Below are positions 471 to 28,390 of a stretch of 36,278 nt of DNA, one piece after another. The translations under genes were made by a program, and so were the position numbers. Under the pieces are notes generated by a model, which saw nothing but the letters and a program-made list of their open reading frames with translations, ran no database searches and was not told the DNA's origin. Source of the DNA: a virus; the IMG/VR virus record IMGVR_UViG_3300045988_041547, positions 1 through 36,278 of that record. One strand, given 5' to 3'. Each line of letters starts with the position of its first letter. Position 1 is the first letter of the stretch.

Positions 471-682
471 TCCTCCACCCCAAAGGCCCGCAGAAACGGA
501 ATGCGCGGGATCTTCGTGCGGTTCCCGCTCACCATAACGGGGAAGGGGAGCAGATCAGGCCGCTGGTGCGCCGCCACCCGGATATAGTCCGGGGTGCAGT
601 GGGCCACTTTCGCCGCCTGGGCCGGGGTAATAACGGCGGTGTCCATCTGCCGGATCTCCTCTAAAAGCTCCATGTCATTCAT
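467..682 (-). CDS. excisionase/MerR-type helix-turn-helix DNA-binding protein, 71 aa
   Basis: Internal ATG of ORF 467..739 preceded by AAGGAGG. MNDMELLEEIRQMDTAVITPAQAAKVAHCTPDYIRVAAHQRPDLLPFPVMVSGNRTKIPRIPFLRAFG resembles Xis/AlpA-type HTH proteins. Confidence 0.6.
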   Translation of the reverse strand: MNDMELLEEIRQMDTAVITPAQAAKVAHCTPDYIRVAAHQRPDLLPFPVMVSGNRTKIPRIPFLRAFGVEE

Positions 683-821
683 GGTCTTCCGCCTCCTTAT
701 CCATATCGGCTCGCATTTTAAGCATCTTAGCCCCGGCATTTACCAGTGCAAGGCTTTTCTGGTCAAGCTGTTTCAGCATTTCCACGGTCTCCTTGATGGT
801 TTTCTTGGTTTCTTCGCTCAT
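675..821 (-). CDS. small hypothetical early protein, 48 aa
   Basis: Own translation: MSEETKKTIKETVEMLKQLDQKSLALVNAGAKMLKMRADMDKEAEDHE. AAAGGAGG RBS 6 nt upstream. Its stop overlaps the next gene's start, consistent with translational coupling. Confidence 0.5.
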   Translation of the reverse strand: MSEETKKTIKETVEMLKQLDQKSLALVNAGAKMLKMRADMDKEAEDHE

Positions 822-2193: not shown

Positions 2194-2632
2194 GTGTGTT
2201 CCTCCTTATATGGTTCGCATCATTTTGCCAACATCGGCAAAATGCTCAAATACTCCAATTTGGGGGACGGTTGATCTAGCTTGGATAGATGCTTGTCTAA
2301 GCTCGGTTAAAAAATCACCTAAGTCAAGCCTAGACAAGCTCTATTATTCTGTGCTTTCATTTTTTATCAATTTTTCCGTTTTTCCTCTTGCGTTCTCCCG
2401 TGATTTTTAGTAAAATCATATTGTGATTGAGCCGTTGTAAAATGGTATGTGGGCTCCGTCTAAACTCTTCCGTTTCTAGCGGCGGGAGGTCTTCATGGCA
2501 CTGCATCATCGTCCCCACCTCCTTGCGGTGCCTATGCTTAGATTATACCAATCCATTTATTCCAATCAATACCATTTATGTGCTCATTTAGTGCTCTTTG
2601 ACGCTCAAATTGCGCCAAATCTGGAAAGGTCG

Positions 2633-3163: not shown

Positions 3164-3811
3164 ATGGAGCAATTAGTTGGTACGCTGCTCCTGTTGTTCG
3201 TCTTTTCCGCTATCCTGATTGGGGCCCTGATGTGGCAAAAATCCGGCACAAAGCGGGCACAGAAAAAAGCGGAAGATCAAAATCGGCAGGATGAGACCCG
3301 GCAGAAGATCGCGGAGGCAGAGGCCGAGTGGAGGAAGCAGCCCCACTCTTGGGATGCTCCAGTGGCCCCGGAAAAGCCAAAGGAGGAGCCGAAAAAGGAT
3401 GATGGCGTAACATTTAAGGCCACCGGGATGGCCTACCACATGGACGGTCTAGAAAAAATCGCCGCTGAAAACTTGGACTATGAGATGACAAACGCGGAAA
3501 TAAAAGAGGAGTATGAGCAGTACGACAGAATCTATAAGTACGAGTACCCGGTAGAGACCGTGGAGCTTGTTCCGGAGCCAGACAACGAGGCCGACCCAAA
3601 CGCCATTGCTGTTCACATCAATGGAGAAAAGGTGGCCTATATTAAGAGAGGTAGCACCACCAGGGCCCGGAACCTCCTGGCAAGCAGAAACAGAAAAATA
3701 ACCGCTGAGGTGTACGGTGGGCCCTACAAAATGGTGGAGGAGGACGATGATGGCAGGTTGACCGTCATCAAAGACGAGAGCCCCATCCGCGTTATTATCA
3801 AGATCAAATAA
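3164..3811 (+). CDS. membrane-anchored HIRAN-domain protein, 215 aa
   Basis: N-terminal TM helix LVGTLLLLFVFSAILIGALMW, then a charged linker. The C-terminal part, FKATGMAYH...VELVPEPDNEADPNAIAVHINGEKVAYIKRGSTTRARNLL, matches the HIRAN pattern (v.L.rEPdNpyDpnAi.V...g..iGyi). A GGAGGAG RBS lies upstream. Confidence 0.6.
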   Translation: MEQLVGTLLLLFVFSAILIGALMWQKSGTKRAQKKAEDQNRQDETRQKIAEAEAEWRKQPHSWDAPVAPEKPKEEPKKDDGVTFKATGMAYHMDGLEKIAAENLDYEMTNAEIKEEYEQYDRIYKYEYPVETVELVPEPDNEADPNAIAVHINGEKVAYIKRGSTTRARNLLASRNRKITAEVYGGPYKMVEEDDDGRLTVIKDESPIRVIIKIK

Positions 3812-3814
3812 AAA

Positions 3815-3844
3815 ATGCCCCCGGTGTCCGAGCACCGGGGGCAT
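3815..3844. terminator. perfect 12-bp hairpin between the HIRAN gene and int
   Basis: atgcccccggtg / tccgag / caccgggggcat. The run of A before it gives a U-run only on the minus-strand reading. On + it may act as a weak terminator or insulator before int. Confidence 0.4.
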
Positions 3845-3953
3845 TGCAGAATAAGGGAGATGCCAAACGACACCAGCGGAAACGGGATCGATTGGAGGAA
3901 TCTGCGCATTTATTATAGCGGATATCTCCCGGAATTACAAGGGGGGAAATCAT

Positions 3954-5060
3954 ATGCAATGCCGGAAATGCCGTGCAGAGGCCCCAGGCGGGGCCAATTA
4001 CTGCCCAAAGTGCGGGGCTAAATTAGTTGTTGCGCACGGAGTAAAAAGTCGTGGCAACGGTCAAGGAACCGCTTTTAAGCGTGGGAAAACGTGGACAGCA
4101 AAGTGGAGCCTCCCGGCATACATTGATGAAAATGGGAAACTGCATCACCCACGTAAAACAAAGGGTGGATTCCAGACAAAAAAAGCCGCATTGGCTTATG
4201 CGTCATGCCCACCGGATTCCGTTGTCAAAGCGCCTACACTCCGAGCATACCATAAGACATGGCACAACGCAGGATTTACAAAATTGAGCAAATCAAAGCA
4301 AATAGCCTATGATATAGCGTGGAAGCGCTGGGCTGGCCTATATGATAAGCCTGTGTCTAATATCTCCATAGGTGATTTGCAGGGGCAGGTGGACACTGAG
4401 ACCTCCACATACTACCCCGCACGGGATATGAAAACCGTAGCGTCACACCTCCTGAAAATGGCCGTTGCAGAGGGCCATCTCCGGGCAAATCTGGCGGAAT
4501 ATATCGAGCTTCCACCGCTGGATGAAAAAGAGATGACCCCGTACACCGAGGACGAGATTAAATTATTCTGGGCGGCATACACCGCCGGTGATACGTTTGT
4601 GGGCTACATCCTGCTGATGATCTACACCGGCATGATGCCCGGTGAGCTATTTATCCTCAAAAAAGACATGATAGATTTTGACAAATGCGAAATTCGGGGT
4701 GCTGGTCTGAAGACCAAAAAGCGGAAAGAAACGCCCCTGGTATTTCCGCAGTCAATCAGCCCCGTGCTCCGCAAACTCTGTGACTGCTCCAAGAGCCGAA
4801 AAGATTACGTTTTATGCATGGACCGCGACAAATTTTACCCAGAATACCATAGAGCTGTCCAAAGCGCTGGATGCAGGGATCTCCCGCCGTACTCCTGCCG
4901 CCATACCACTGCTACAGCACTGGCGCTTGGAAACATCGCCCCTTCTGTTATTCAGGAGGTTATGAGGCATAGTAAATTTACAACGACGCAGCGCTATATT
5001 CACCCCGATAATGCCGCTTCCCATGCCGCGATCAATCAGATCGTGACAAGCGCAGAGTGA
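3954..5060 (+). CDS. int: tyrosine integrase with N-terminal zinc ribbon, 368 aa
   Basis: N-terminus MQCRKCRAEAPGGANYCPKCG (CxxC..CxxC). The C-terminus has tyrosine-recombinase boxes: ...MMPGELFIL..., CRHTTATALALGNI, VMRHSKFTTTQRYIH. It sits directly upstream of the tRNA-derived attP. Confidence 0.9.
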   Translation: MQCRKCRAEAPGGANYCPKCGAKLVVAHGVKSRGNGQGTAFKRGKTWTAKWSLPAYIDENGKLHHPRKTKGGFQTKKAALAYASCPPDSVVKAPTLRAYHKTWHNAGFTKLSKSKQIAYDIAWKRWAGLYDKPVSNISIGDLQGQVDTETSTYYPARDMKTVASHLLKMAVAEGHLRANLAEYIELPPLDEKEMTPYTEDEIKLFWAAYTAGDTFVGYILLMIYTGMMPGELFILKKDMIDFDKCEIRGAGLKTKKRKETPLVFPQSISPVLRKLCDCSKSRKDYVLCMDRDKFYPEYHRAVQSAGCRDLPPYSCRHTTATALALGNIAPSVIQEVMRHSKFTTTQRYIHPDNAASHAAINQIVTSAE

Positions 5061-6340: not shown

Positions 6341-6979
6341 TTATGCGCACCCGCAGCCGCTATTGCAGCCGCAGAAGGGAGATGGCCCAGCCGTGTAAGT
6401 GTAACCGTTCGGATAACGGACAACACCGTACATGCGGTTGTCAGCCTCCAGAGCAGAGACCTTATCCCGCAGCTGCTGGATTTCGTTGGCCTGCATCAGT
6501 GCCCGGGTCTGCTCACCCTCGGCGTGGATCGCCGTAGTGATGTCGCAGGTCTGCCGGTCAATCTGTGCGGACAGGTTAGCGGTCGCAAGTCTGTTGTCGC
6601 AGCAACACTGGGCAATCTGAGACTGGATGTTGTTCCCGGTCTGCATAATCGTTGTGTTTGTGCCCGCCTGCGCAAGCGCAACTTCTTTGCCAAGCTGACC
6701 GATGTTGCTCTGCATCTCATAGCCCAGGTTGCAAATTCCGTTGCCCAGGTTGGACAGCCGGTCGTTGATCTGTCCGAACTGCTGCCCAAACAGAATCTCC
6801 TGCTGAGAGGCCGCAGTTGCATAACGATCAAGCTCCCCGCTGTTCTGGCGGTTAAATCCGTTCCAGCCGCCCATAATGACAAACAGAAACAGGATGATAA
6901 TCCACCATGCACCGTTACCGGCCATGCCGTCAGCATCCTTGGTTACCGCTGCCAGGTCGGAAAGACTATAGTTTTCCAC
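6341..6979 (-). CDS. membrane protein with coiled-coil region, CCC motif and Cys-rich C-terminus, 212 aa
   Basis: GTG start with an AAGGAG RBS. TM helix AWWIIILFLFVIMGGW. Gln/Asn-rich helical repeats, QCCCDNR, and C-terminal FCGCNSGCGCA. Confidence 0.65.
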   Translation of the reverse strand: MENYSLSDLAAVTKDADGMAGNGAWWIIILFLFVIMGGWNGFNRQNSGELDRYATAASQQEILFGQQFGQINDRLSNLGNGICNLGYEMQSNIGQLGKEVALAQAGTNTTIMQTGNNIQSQIAQCCCDNRLATANLSAQIDRQTCDITTAIHAEGEQTRALMQANEIQQLRDKVSALEADNRMYGVVRYPNGYTYTAGPSPFCGCNSGCGCA

Positions 6980-26373: not shown

Positions 26374-26694
26374 TTAGCGAACTAAAGTGCCCCCTGGGGG
26401 GGATTGAACCGGCACCGGCTGGCCGTCCTCGTCGAACTGATAGTCACTCGCTATGCCCATGCGCTCTGCATAGTGCTCTGCCTTGTGGCAAGCATCACAC
26501 AGGCTCTCCAGATTACCGGGATTTAGCGTTATGTTTGGGTCATTGATATTGTCCGGAGCTAGGCGGATAATGTGGTGTACGTCCGTTGCCGGTGCTCCGC
26601 ATCTCCGACATAGGTACTTATCGCGCATAAGCGCATATGCCCTTGCGTCTCTCCATAGGGCAGAGTGGTAAAATGCTTTGGCAAATGGTTTCAT
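26374..26694 (-). CDS. HNH endonuclease (packaging-associated), 106 aa
   Basis: CRRCG....DVHHIIRL......N...NLESLCDACHKAEH is an HNH motif with two CxxC pairs. Confidence 0.85.
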   Translation of the reverse strand: MKPFAKAFYHSALWRDARAYALMRDKYLCRRCGAPATDVHHIIRLAPDNINDPNITLNPGNLESLCDACHKAEHYAERMGIASDYQFDEDGQPVPVQSPPGGTLVR

Positions 26695-27539
26695 TTCCCA
26701 AGCCCTTTCACAATTTCCAGCTCTCTATCACTCAACCTCCAGACACGAGCGGCTGCACGTTCTGCGGCTGCACGTTCTGCGGCTGCACGTTCTGCGGCTG
26801 CACGTTCTGCGGCTGCACGTTCTGCGGCTGCACGTTCTGCGGCTTTTGCGTCTGATAACAGTAGGCCGGAGCCGAATATGGCTTTCCCGTGCTCAGCCTG
26901 TGCATCCAACTTTGACACTCTGGTGCAATCCTTACGTCTGACCTCAAAATCAATCCCATACTTGCTATACTTCTGGAGCATAGCCGCCGTTAGGATATGA
27001 CCCGGGTATTGGTATTTCGGAAGCTCTCGACGCGTCTCTTGCCGGATTTTGACCATAGCTGCCTCGATCATGCTGAGTAAATCCGGCGCTGTCCTGGCTA
27101 CCACATCGCCGCCCAGGTTGGTAACAAACGCCGTACGTACAACCGCACCATTTGCATATGTAATATCAGCACCACAGACGATGTGTGTCATCTCCATGCA
27201 AGTATCTTTGCCGCCAAAGGCGGTAAGAGACGGGGCGAATAGGAAGAATCTAATGCCGCGCTCAAGATAAAATCTGCATATCCGGGTCAGAATGCTAAAT
27301 GGTGGATTATCCAGAACAGTACATCCGTCTGGGTAGTCGTAGTGTTCGTAGTCTCCACCGGGGTAAAACGGCCTCGCGATATTATCAGGATCAATGTCAT
27401 ACTGTTTACAGGCCCAGGCTTTGACCGCCTCATAGATCAGTGGTGGAGTATAACAGTCGTCCGTGGTCTTTTTTGGTTTGAATTTGTCCACAAATGCCTC
27501 GTATTCCGGGTTGTCGTTAAACAAGCTCGTCTGATCCAT
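26691..27539 (-). CDS. putative N6-adenine DNA methyltransferase with a C-terminal (AAERA)n linker, 282 aa
   Basis: TTDDCYTPP near the N-terminus and a DNPPF catalytic motif (DPPY/NPPF class). AAGGTGGTGAG RBS. The C-terminus holds the AAERA repeats followed by RVWRLSDRELEIVKGLGK. Confidence 0.6.
   Translation of the reverse strand: MDQTSLFNDNPEYEAFVDKFKPKKTTDDCYTPPLIYEAVKAWACKQYDIDPDNIARPFYPGGDYEHYDYPDGCTVLDNPPFSILTRICRFYLERGIRFFLFAPSLTAFGGKDTCMEMTHIVCGADITYANGAVVRTAFVTNLGGDVVARTAPDLLSMIEAAMVKIRQETRRELPKYQYPGHILTAAMLQKYSKYGIDFEVRRKDCTRVSKLDAQAEHGKAIFGSGLLLSDAKAAERAAAERAAAERAAAERAAAERAAAERAAARVWRLSDRELEIVKGLGK
26751..26844. repeat. perfect 15-bp tandem repeat, 6 full copies plus 4 nt
   Basis: ggctgcacgttctgc is repeated head to tail from 26751 to 26840, then ggct. 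It is in frame in the methyltransferase gene, encoding AAERA x6-7. Confidence 0.95.
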
Positions 27540-27759
27540 GCTCTCACCACCTTTTGCGCTCCCTATTTGTACCCCGCCGGGAGCTGGCGGCGCCCTGATG
27601 CGTCACAGGCTTACGCTTTGCGCAGCGACCAAGCTGCGCCATTTCCCCCCACGTTGGTTTTACCTACCCGGCGTGGGTTCCGGGCTGCTCTAATTTCTCT
27701 ACCAACCGAGCACATTCAAGCCCACAATTTATTTGCCGCCGTGGGCAAGCGGCAGGCGT

Positions 27760-27824
27760 TGCAAGGGGCTGGAATTGAACCAGCCTGACGGATTATGCAG
27801 CTACCGTCCCGCACCTGCCCTTGC
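27760..27824 (-). ncRNA. tRNA-like module B (acceptor stem + T-arm, non-canonical core, 65 nt)
   Basis: On the minus strand: GCAAGGG ... GACGG-TAGCTGCATAAT-CCGTC ... GCTGG-TTCAATT-CCAGC-CCCTTGC-A. The acceptor pairing is a perfect 7 bp and the T-arm a perfect 5 bp with a TTCAATT loop. There is no D-arm, and a 12-nt loop sits where the anticodon loop would be. Confidence 0.35.
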
Positions 27825-27873
27825 ATATGTCGCGGCCTGTTGCACATCGTTGAGAGGTGTGCCGCGCTCTATC

Positions 27874-27987
27874 TGGCGCAGGTGGGTGGATTTGAACCGC
27901 CCTGGCACATAGGTCAGAAAGGAGATCGTCCAAGGGCAATTTTAGGAGGAATTGCACGAAAAAGTAGCCAGCTACCGGAGCACCTGC
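27874..27987 (-). ncRNA. tRNA-like module A (acceptor stem + T-arm + encoded CCA, 114 nt, with extra hairpins)
   Basis: On the minus strand: GCAGGTG ... GCAATT-CCTCCTAA-AATTGC hairpin ... GGCGG-TTCAAAT-CCACC (one C:A mismatch) - CACCTGC-G-CCA. It is too long and lacks a proper D-arm for a canonical tRNA. Confidence 0.35.
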
Positions 27988-28056
27988 GTATTTTGACGGG
28001 GCAGGTGATGGCAAACACAGGAGGAATCATCTGATGGGACCCGCACCGTCAATATT

Positions 28057-28085
28057 ATTATACCAGCAAAAATCATGCACGTCAT
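28057..28085 (-). promoter_or_regulatory. candidate promoter reading into the non-coding region and the methyltransferase/packaging operon
   Basis: On the minus strand: ATGACG (28085..28080), a 17-nt spacer, then TGgTATAAT (extended -10, TATAAT at 28062..28057). It lies just after the stop of gene 28094..28390. Confidence 0.45.
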
Positions 28086-28093
28086 GCGCACAT

Positions 28094-28390
28094 TTACAGT
28101 GCGCCGTACTCTCTCAACCGATCCCGAAATGAAGCAAGCACAGCACGGCACCGCCCGTGAAAATCAGTCCTACAAACTGGGATATAGCGGATTTTTTGTA
28201 TTTCCTCGTAGCTAACCCCACCGACGATAGAATACACAATATCGTCCGCAAGGGAAGGTTCTACCGAGTATGCTGCATCGTATAGCAGTAGTCGCCGTTC
28301 ATAGTCTGGCTGCCTTGCCAAAAACCTTATGTACTTTTCTTCGTTTTGCTGGAATCCATAATCCGCATAAGTTTTGTTCCTAGTTTTCAC
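28094..28390 (-). CDS. hypothetical protein, 98 aa (possible late regulator by position only)
   Basis: ORF-track ORF, last early-region gene before the non-coding stretch. No family recognised. Confidence 0.55.
   Translation of the reverse strand: MKTRNKTYADYGFQQNEEKYIRFLARQPDYERRLLLYDAAYSVEPSLADDIVYSIVGGVSYEEIQKIRYIPVCRTDFHGRCRAVLASFRDRLREYGAL

Follow-up and report, generated by a model that had tools for sequence, protein, structure and literature searches.

An orphan abiF-type hairpin between two non-decoding tRNA-like modules in a temperate gut phage

Why would a phage keep two tRNA-shaped units that cannot decode in a non-coding stretch directly ahead of its packaging genes? The question is raised by the minus strand of positions 27540..28093 in IMG/VR virus record IMGVR_UViG_3300045988_041547, analysed from position 1 to 36,278 (hereafter the window), which comprises most of a temperate, siphovirus-like (pro)phage sampled in a human-gut metagenome. 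The initial annotation, made from the letters alone, described a GC-rich non-coding region with two such units (modules A and B) and offered for it the roles of a tRNA mimic or decoy, of Y-RNA-like RNAs, or of a structured leader controlling late gene expression. The region is indeed non-coding: only short open reading frames (ORFs) overlap it, and among relatives the indels are not multiples of 3 and whole modules are swapped. Its G+C content, 0.572 against 0.50-0.61 elsewhere in the window, makes it mildly GC-rich at most. What that first account overlooked is a 37-nt hairpin that lies exactly between the two modules and resembles the abiF family of RNA antitoxins, and this position alters what the modules are likely to be for: rather than decoys in themselves, they look like handles for the processing of an anti-AbiF RNA. 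We consider it most likely that the core of the cassette is an orphan abiF hairpin set between tRNA-like processing or stability handles, and that it is a phage counter-defence RNA.

The hairpin occupies 27830..27866 on the minus strand, reads CGCGGC-A-CAC-CUCUCAACGAU-GUG-CAACAG-GCCGCG-A, and was found by a permissive Rfam search of 27400..28250. It aligns with abiF RNA (RF03085) over the full length of the model (1-37) at 33.2 bits, and both its 11-nt loop and its 3' CAA bulge are identical to the family consensus; 7 nt separate it from module A upstream and 6 nt from module B downstream. AbiF is an Abi_2 (PF07751)/HEPN RNase of abortive infection, and its antitoxin is the abiF-motif RNA, which neutralises it by binding, whether in cis or in trans (PMC12373285). 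Reviews report a cryo-electron microscopy complex of PbAbiF with its RNA, derive Cas13 from AbiF, and regard the AbiF RNA as the ancestor of the CRISPR RNA (crRNA) repeats of Cas13 (PMC12737573, PMC13064643). It is very improbable that the match is a chance one, in an ordinary hairpin that spaces two tRNA-like elements. At 37 nt the motif is short, and its score is below the Rfam threshold; but within the region searched the E value is 5e-4, the loop (11 of 11 bases) and the CAA bulge agree fully with the consensus, and the sequence is near-invariant across relatives whose flanks diverge by 10-20%, with a compensated change in the stem. Moreover, its A-U inner-stem variant recurs in unrelated contigs of independent lineages, and copies beside tRNAs or tRNA-like elements in many others score 40-58 bits.

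No toxin gene accompanies the hairpin. Pfam found no Abi_2 among the roughly 30 non-structural ORFs of the window, tblastn with two AbiF proteins found no AbiF in the window (best E = 0.4), and PADLOC returned nothing for the neighbouring ORFs. In a positive control, a plasmid of Phocaeicola massiliensis (locus L196, OY726013.1), a hairpin of 59.1 bits stands 20 nt upstream of a gene for a 299-aa Abi_2 protein (170 bits). The motif in fact flanks this plasmid gene on both sides, at 2501..2537 and 3528..3587, with 59.1 bits upstream and 44 bits downstream. Because the window's copy scores below the gathering score and has no linked abiF gene, we call it a divergent, orphan abiF-type hairpin; judged by its sequence, it would work like a member of the abiF RNA family.

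The two modules were correctly described as units in which a 7-bp acceptor stem is stacked on a T-arm, and both are present on the minus strand. Module A (27874..27987, 114 nt) has an acceptor stem formed by 27987-27981 with 27884-27878 (GCAGGTG/CACCTGC, 7/7 bp), a T-arm at 27901-27885 (GGCGG-TTCAAAT-CCACC) and a GCCA tail; its T-stem carries one C.A mismatch in the window, a correction to the initial annotation. Its 25-nt D-region is without a canonical D-arm and its variable region is long. The hairpin previously noted inside it, GCAATT-CCTCCTAA-AATTGC, is present at 27955..27936, with 6 bp and the 8-nt loop CCUCCUAA. Module B (27760..27824, 65 nt) is D-armless: its acceptor stem (GCAAGGG/CCCTTGC) is followed by 9 nt of linker, by a hairpin in which 5 bp (GACGG/CCGTC) enclose a 12-nt loop, and by a T-arm (GCUGG-UUCAAUU-CCAGC), with A as discriminator and no encoded CCA. 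Its minimum-free-energy fold is the acceptor plus T-arm (z = -3.27; 0/200 shuffles as good), and it matches the tRNA-Sec model weakly, at 22.6 bits against a gathering score of 47. Both modules combine, as tRNAs do, a 7-bp acceptor with a coaxial 5-bp T-stem whose T-loop fits UUCRANY. A detector for acceptor plus T-arm minihelices with a TTCRA loop found them, in the whole window, only at modules A and B; dinucleotide shuffles of the 36 kb yield a mean of 0.7 per 72 kb (both strands), so that about 0.01 would be expected in the region, where 2 are observed, on one strand and within 230 nt.

That these are not ordinary tRNAs, as first proposed, is confirmed: ARAGORN reports 0 genes in the window, neither module has a D-arm, and in the anticodon position their loops measure 8 and 12 nt. 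The tRNA model RF00005 gives no match even at E <= 10, nothing in the window reaches an Rfam gathering score, and no Rfam family explains either module; at E <= 10 the search of 27400-28250 lists only abiF, the weak tRNA-Sec match and two spurious matches. The suggestion of Y-RNA-like RNAs found no backing, there being no Rfam signal for YrlA in 27400-28250 at that threshold. A transfer-messenger RNA (tmRNA) combines a tRNA-Ala-like domain (G3.U70, CCA end) with a tag-peptide frame and pseudoknots, and this identity was rejected: the ARAGORN tmRNA search was negative, position 3 of module A is A-U, and the CCA tail is not conserved. Modules A and B are thus real, conserved (as set out below), tRNA-shaped and non-decoding.

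Relatives were drawn from loci anchored on the 282-aa protein encoded next to the region, from DNA pattern scans and from exact-protein look-ups, and provided ten distinct cassette sequences (the window, L172, L001, L002, L166, L168, L186, L195, L200 and L201). Module A and the hairpin form a constant core, while module B, the leader hairpin, module C and an extra unit with a canonical D-arm sequence, module 0, come and go. In L001 the acceptor of module A has become GCCGGAG/CTCCGGC, with two doubly compensated pairs; its T-stem is GGCGG/CCGCC in four relatives and GGTGG/CCACC in L186 and L195, the window being the C.A intermediate; and its variable arm contains a 4-bp stem with one compensated pair. 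In the abiF-type hairpin, one pair of the outer stem reads C-G in the window, but U.G in L001 and U-A in L002 (n = 5, 1 and 1 in the alignment), the helix is 100% paired, and the G.U state pairs on the minus strand only. Covariation was counted on a condensed, gap-free alignment of the module A stems and the hairpin in 7 sequences. Paired bases fill 95.4% of its cells, against 35-46% in slid controls, and 5/25 pairs change on both sides, 4 of them in module A; 0-1/500 shuffles reach these values for pairing and change. The covariation check asked of the region thus favours the structures, since the stems of module A and of the hairpin do covary in relatives, and the compensated pairs point to selection on structure. 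For module B there is one compensated T-stem pair and two G-U changes, and all of its stem substitutions but one keep pairing.

These counts bear on a further explanation, that the cassette is a decaying tRNA array in which modules 0, A, B and C are functionless pseudo-tRNAs and only the hairpin, or nothing, is selected. Several features fit such a history. The tRNA-like fragments are scattered and vary in number among relatives; a canonical D-arm, GCTCAGTTGGTAGAGC, persists in module 0 of L002 and L166 and is degenerate in module C; and module A folds no better than shuffles. The CCA tail would also fit, in that the G-CCA end first reported for module A holds for the window and not for its relatives, whose tails are GCCA, TCCA, ACAA, GCAA and GAAA. 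But decay does not predict that the stems of module A (acceptor, T and variable arm) should hold four of the five double-changed pairs, at a level reached by so few shuffles, nor that the substitutions in module B should nearly all preserve pairing, nor that non-decoding partners should have arisen at the same position in several unrelated lineages (see below). We regard it as rather unlikely.

If the hairpin is an antitoxin without a toxin in this phage, is it also one elsewhere? The loop pattern CCTCTCAACGATGNNCAA occurs in at least 119 viral contigs. Nearly all of these viral copies form the hairpin, and across more than 100 copies the outer stems differ in sequence but remain complementary. 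Of 13 loci tested, 9 reach the RF03085 gathering score, at 41-56 bits, and 3 of the other 4 belong to the window's lineage. Abi_2 is absent from the 25 of 32 Pfam families listed for the 59 ORFs that start at most 600 nt downstream of viral hairpins, and within the loci fetched (1.5 Mb) an AbiF homologue was found in L095 only. That homologue (3615..4496, plus strand) has 27.5% identity to the Phocaeicola AbiF (E = 7e-26), and the L095 hairpin, at 4559..4577, lies just downstream of the gene and not upstream.

Isolated phages carry the hairpin too. With a single 37-nt query, 75 records match, of which 54 are Mycobacterium phages; the others include Synechococcus, Aeromonas (T7-like), Acinetobacter (T4-like), Salicola, Arthrobacter and Rhizobium phages, among others. 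Almost none of these hairpins is annotated, and they are intergenic or overlapped by 'hypothetical protein' calls. Rfam confirms those of Acinetobacter phage Acj61 (58 bits), Mycobacterium phages Thibault (54.9 bits) and Chaser (40.5 bits), Synechococcus phage S-CREM1 (52.2 bits) and Aeromonas phage T7-Ah (50.7 bits). Coordinates of such hairpins in isolates are 90374..90409 in JN201525.1, 77198..77234 in GU911519.1, 20552..20587 in MT740748.1 and 65382..65418 in MZ005679.1; in the T7-like Aeromonas phage the hairpin stands between the connector and scaffold genes. None of the isolate hairpins examined adjoins an Abi gene, and the complete Chaser genome contains no AbiF homologue. Chaser (MZ005679.1; loci L197/L198) also encodes a Ro-like RNA-binding protein, a polynucleotide kinase, an RNA ligase and a HicA-like toxin, a gene set that looks like a toolkit for RNA repair and RNA defence. 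At another locus (L188, ERZ1034873 NODE-47; match 6416..6436, minus strand), the 3' end of a tRNA is immediately followed by a tandem of two abiF-like hairpins, the second of them degenerate (CACCTCTCCACGATGTGG); the layout resembles that of the two-motif RCd22, and no toxin gene was detected there. The annotation of cyanophage S-CREM1 names an 'abiF sRNA' in passing (PMC9964418). In the literature searched, which did not extend to the Cell 2025 paper on AbiF, we found no description of orphan abiF hairpins as phage counter-defence.

The tRNA-like surroundings of the window's hairpin have their counterpart in many of these phages. Among 113 distinct viral contexts, ARAGORN places a tRNA within 300 nt of the hairpin in 56, all on the same strand as the hairpin and 0 on the opposite one. 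In 41/113 the start of a tRNA follows the hairpin by 3-9 nt, and in 6/113 a tRNA ends 3-11 nt ahead of it; 30 of the 41 downstream tRNAs are tRNA-Arg(UCU), mostly from one large cyanophage-like lineage. The minihelix detector, which is independent of ARAGORN and was run on 111 of the contexts, finds a downstream minihelix in 41, as against 16/2260 random positions. All told, about 45% of the viral-contig copies have a co-oriented tRNA or non-decoding tRNA-like module 3-9 nt downstream, and the adjacency holds in at least 13 of the 44 lineages into which the flanks cluster. S-CREM1 has the order tRNA-Asn, hairpin, 4 nt, tRNA-Gly, and Chaser the order tRNA-Gly, 7 nt, hairpin, 4 nt, tRNA-Lys. The spacers of 7 and 6 nt in the window equal those found at true tRNAs beside abiF hairpins. 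Some 14 of the downstream partners are themselves non-decoding: 64-nt D-armless units like module B (L047, L103), 68-nt units in which a CAU triloop caps a 7-bp 'anticodon' stem (L132, L151), 80-nt units (L098, L136), and units with two-base 'anticodons' (L079, L116, L154). The recurrence of such partners implies that the tRNA shape, and not decoding, is the recurrent feature. The link to tRNAs is frequent and not obligatory: T7-Ah and Acj61 have no tRNA-like neighbour, and the Thibault hairpin has its nearest tRNA 270 nt downstream. In L130 and L089, of T4-like cyanophage type, a promoter-like site (TTGACA-17-TGgTATGAT) lies about 70-110 nt upstream of the hairpin and inside the tRNA array, an arrangement which suggests that the abiF hairpin and tRNA-Arg(UCU) may form a transcription unit of their own.

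From these distributions a broader proposal can be framed, to which we assign a little less than an even chance. Phages of hosts from several phyla would carry orphan AbiF-antitoxin hairpins as a broad-spectrum counter-defence, recurrently by way of tRNA arrays or non-decoding handles, from which RNase P and RNase Z would excise them; examples would be gut phages, cluster J/L mycobacteriophages, T4-like phages of cyanobacteria and Acinetobacter, and T7-like Aeromonas phages. On that proposal, the window would be an instance of tRNA genes pared down to modules that serve only the processing of an anti-defence RNA.

For the window itself, the specific course of events may be laid out step by step, and we judge it about as likely to be right as wrong: a promoter-driven leader would be cut by RNase P and RNase Z at the modules, releasing a mimic of the AbiF antitoxin that silences the AbiF of the host. 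A promoter at about 28085-28057 would drive a structured leader, some 510 nt long, that precedes the methylase and packaging genes. For bacterial RNase P and RNase Z, an acceptor plus T-arm minihelix suffices as a substrate, and modules A and B have the structural prerequisites, so that cleavage may be predicted for both. Host RNase P would cut at the 5' ends of the modules, between 27987 and 27988 for module A and between 27824 and 27825 for module B, and RNase Z or other 3' trimming would cut after module A, at about 27874. The RNA so freed would be some 45-50 nt long (roughly 27873..27825) and essentially the abiF hairpin. It would then occupy the host's HEPN RNase AbiF in place of the labile antitoxin RNA of the host, and AbiF would stay inactive during infection or induction even if the host's antitoxin RNA decays, and abortive infection would be avoided. 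With a loop near-invariant across phyla, one phage copy could act on many AbiF homologues. We infer transcription, cleavage by RNase P and RNase Z, and the binding and inhibition of AbiF from sequence.

Several observations weigh against this account and should be read with it. The hairpin's 33.2 bits fall short of the RF03085 gathering score of 37, as do the scores of the close relatives L088, L166 and L167, and the loop change CUCGACG seen in three relatives is left unexplained by the model. The covariation sample is small and its sequences are phylogenetically related; for module B, with 4 distinct sequences, covariation is indistinguishable from that of shuffles. Module A folds with z = -0.3, and its loop CCUCCUAA is not accounted for by a role as a pure processing handle. 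Module B is absent from L166, L168, L200 and L201 and is thus dispensable. About 55% of viral-contig hairpins have no adjacent tRNA-like element, which means that processing by tRNA enzymes cannot be the sole route of maturation. Finally, the promoter is a consensus match only, expression and processing are predicted, and the AbiF of the host is a presumed target.

The near-invariance of the module A loop is one of the points in favour of an alternative role for the modules. They might be active themselves, as decoys or inhibitors of tRNA-targeting nucleases or tRNA-modifying toxins, with the hairpin as a second, independent anti-defence RNA; candidate targets would be anticodon nucleases, PARIS-type or retron effectors, and possibly the HEPN activity of AbiF itself. 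The loop CCUCCUAA is identical in 7/10 related sequences, L186 having a 7-nt CCUCCUA (one A lost) and L200 and L201 having CCUCCUCA. The acceptor/T-arm shape is retained while the 'anticodon' loops, of 8 and 12 nt, are abnormal; non-decoding tRNA-like modules recur beside the abiF hairpins of other phages; and phage tRNAs are reported to neutralise PARIS and retron effectors (PMC11464382, PMC11555353). Yet the interiors of the partners differ completely between lineages, which fits a need for shape only better than mimicry of one tRNA. Nor does the idea sit well with the dispensability of module B in four relatives, or with the constant spacing of 3-9 nt to the hairpin, which would be unexplained if the two were independent. 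We therefore hold a decoy role to be unlikely, and continue with the modules as probable processing handles for the hairpin.

A different possibility is raised by the location of the cassette and by what surrounds its core. The 510-nt RNA could be a cis-acting leader that controls the methylase/packaging operon by antitermination, by mRNA stability, or by translational control through its CCUCC loops or its 3' element, the resemblance to abiF being incidental to its function. The promoter named in the initial annotation exists as a site: 28057..28085 on the minus strand has a -35 of ATGACG, a 17-nt spacer and an extended -10 (TGgTATAAT), matching 10/12 consensus positions of a sigma-70-type promoter with the TG present. 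Shuffles give a mean of 1.1 such sites, and it may be taken, as a consensus match only, for the presumed start of the non-coding transcript. The -10 is retained in L002, and L166 and L168 carry a different AT-rich -10 at the same place. A terminator-like hairpin with a T-run at 28075..28093 (minus strand) marks the end of the 98-aa ORF and overlaps the -35; L166 and L168 have an analogous arrangement with a different hairpin. Next comes the leader hairpin, GACGGTGCGGG...CCTGCCCCGTC, at 27995..28050 (minus strand), whose loop holds AUUCCUCCU; its fold has z = -2.6, with 2/200 shuffles folding as well, and a T->G change in L172 and L002 mends its sole mismatch.

The anti-Shine-Dalgarno-like AUUCCUCCU occurs twice in hairpin loops on the minus strand, in module A (27936..27955) and in the leader (28013..28021), and the second is not explained by the processing model. 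A function of the CCUCCU loop as a trans-acting anti-Shine-Dalgarno seed was considered and set aside, the window containing 4 complementary sites and 29/100 shuffles being as good.

Downstream of module B, the minus strand continues with a hairpin, UGCCGC-(9 nt)-GCGGCA followed by AAAUAAAUU, at 27734..27754; the terminator scan makes no call there, and it is not a canonical intrinsic terminator. Module C (27673..27725, minus strand) resembles a tRNA fragment, with a D-arm-like GCUCGGUUGGUAGAG inside GUGGG/CCCAC, and is paralogous to module 0 of L002, L166 and L168; it folds no better than shuffles (z = -0.2), and with z values of -0.2 to -0.4 the folds of module A, module C and the 3' part are uninformative. 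The GC hairpin of the initial annotation, GCGCAGC-UUGGUC-GCUGCGC, is where it was placed (27619..27638, minus strand), and is retained in L001 and altered in L002 and L186. Last, directly before the ribosome-binding site, is a conserved 3' leader element of about 65 nt (27553..27617, minus strand) made of a GCGU-(9 nt)-ACGC hairpin and then a helix of GCUCCC (27584-27579) with GGGAGC (27563-27558); pairing of CCGCC (27590-27586) with GGCGG (27578-27574) might turn this into a pseudoknot. The helix has compensated changes, to GUCCCC/GGGGAC in the second L001 copy and to CCCCC/GGGGG in L195, and no Rfam family matches the element. It is also found in L001 (3811..3906, with two copies at this locus), L166 (about 668..745), L168, L195, L200 and L201, and stands before three different genes, for the 282-aa methyltransferase (MTase)-like protein, a ParB-MTase and a 95-aa ORF. 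By its position it could be a regulatory cassette of gene starts.

A cis-acting role would accord with the place of the region directly upstream of late genes, with no clear terminator before the ATG, with this 3' element and its covarying helix ahead of the ribosome-binding sites of three different genes, with the two AUUCCUCCU loops, and with the report that abiF-motif RNA, in the canonical system, additionally reduces transcription of the gene that follows it (PMC12373285). The core of module A and hairpin, however, stands upstream of different genes, the 3' element is also found without that core, the hairpin occurs in many phages in unrelated contexts that include the inside of tRNA arrays, and the matches of the CCUCCU loop to complementary sites within the window are not significant. 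Control of the operon as the function of the cassette seems distinctly unlikely to us, and an antitoxin mimic released from between the modules is still the preferred interpretation.

The genomic setting is that of a temperate (pro)phage. The window encodes an integrase and a helix-turn-helix (HTH) repressor, YqaJ, RecT and single-stranded DNA-binding (SSB) proteins, HNH, TerL, portal, protease and capsid genes, and its non-coding region is identical in ENA ERZ28596500 scaffold_665; against 50,697 phage records, megablast and blastn found no match to the region. On the minus strand it lies between the 98-aa ORF upstream (28094..28390) and the gene of the 282-aa protein (26691..27539, minus strand; phrog_21498), which heads the packaging and late genes, with HNH, TerL, portal, protease and capsid next. 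The 282-aa protein has DNA-methyltransferase-like motifs (CYTPP, DNPPF) and an (AAERA)n repeat, the copy number of which varies among relatives, and has no Pfam match. It was considered as a hidden AbiF and rejected, since it has no Pfam, PADLOC or PDB-sequence match and its motifs look like those of a DNA methyltransferase. An integration-site (attP) remnant was likewise rejected, the integrase gene (3954-5060) being 23 kb from the region and both acceptor strands being present. Pairing of the 3' acceptor strand of module A with a GCAGGTG in module B was rejected as well, for in L001 the acceptor of A has changed and B has not.

AbiF is a widespread defence of the HEPN toxin-RNA antitoxin kind and the proposed ancestor of Cas13. 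Should the hairpin be common in phages that lack the toxin, RNA-antitoxin mimicry would have a second natural case, after pseudo-ToxI, and RNA anti-CRISPRs would have a close counterpart. Intergenic hairpins that stand unannotated in 75 or more sequenced phages would acquire a function, and part of the purpose of phage tRNA arrays would be explained, their tRNA genes being reducible to processing handles for other RNAs. The hairpin could also serve as a small genetic part, for switching off AbiF-type toxins or for improving the host range of therapeutic phages.

How does the cassette compare with known systems? With the abiF RNA family (RF03085; RCd22 of C. difficile phi027, AbiFr of Prevotellaceae), whose members are antitoxins in the AbiF/Abi_2 HEPN type III toxin-antitoxin system, the hairpin shares the 6-bp outer stem, the 1-nt bulge, the 3-bp inner stem, the 11-nt loop and the CAA-containing 3' bulge. 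It differs from that family in its CAC/GUG inner stem, its subthreshold score and the tRNA-like modules that flank it, and from the system as a whole in that the window has no abiF gene and a single copy of the motif, where RCd22 has two motifs and a terminator (PMC12373285). In location within phage tRNA arrays and in a counter-defence purpose it is like the anti-defence phage tRNAs, of which T5 tRNA-Lys reportedly counters PARIS (PMC11464382) and others retron effectors (PMC11555353); those, however, are functional or uncleavable and replace depleted host tRNAs, whereas modules A and B cannot decode. A phage-borne inhibitor of AbiF, as proposed here, has a precedent in the hairpin of the cos region of phage sk1, reported to give protection from the lactococcal AbiF (Rince et al. 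2000, with a test by Zilberzwige-Tal et al. 2025; both as related in PMC13064643 and PMC12184496), although the sk1 hairpin reportedly does not resemble the AbiF non-coding RNA (PMC13064643) and that of the window is a near-consensus copy. RNA anti-CRISPRs (Racrs) are solitary repeat units in phages and reportedly offer the same principle of a small phage RNA that mimics the protein-binding hairpin of the defence system's own RNA (PMC10651486). Since the AbiF RNA is regarded as the ancestor of the Cas13 crRNA repeats, that analogy is a close one, with the difference that Racrs target CRISPR-Cas effectors. To our knowledge, no link of Racrs to tRNAs has been described. Small RNAs matured by tRNA processing include the minihelix substrates of RNase P, the stable RNAs of the T4 tRNA cluster, and mascRNA/MALAT1; there, as is predicted here, an acceptor/T-arm minihelix recognised by RNase P or RNase Z defines the ends of its neighbours. 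We know of none that delivers an antitoxin mimic. The logic proposed for the window, a phage copy of an antitoxin RNA set against a host toxin, is that of pseudo-ToxI of Pectobacterium phage PhiTE, described by Blower et al. (2012, PLoS Genet), in which a phage copy of a type III antitoxin is said to neutralise the host toxin and so escape abortive infection. The toxin of that system, ToxN, is of another family than the HEPN protein AbiF, and its antitoxin is reportedly a tandem-repeat array processed by the toxin, whereas the window has a single hairpin that would presumably be matured by the enzymes of tRNA processing.

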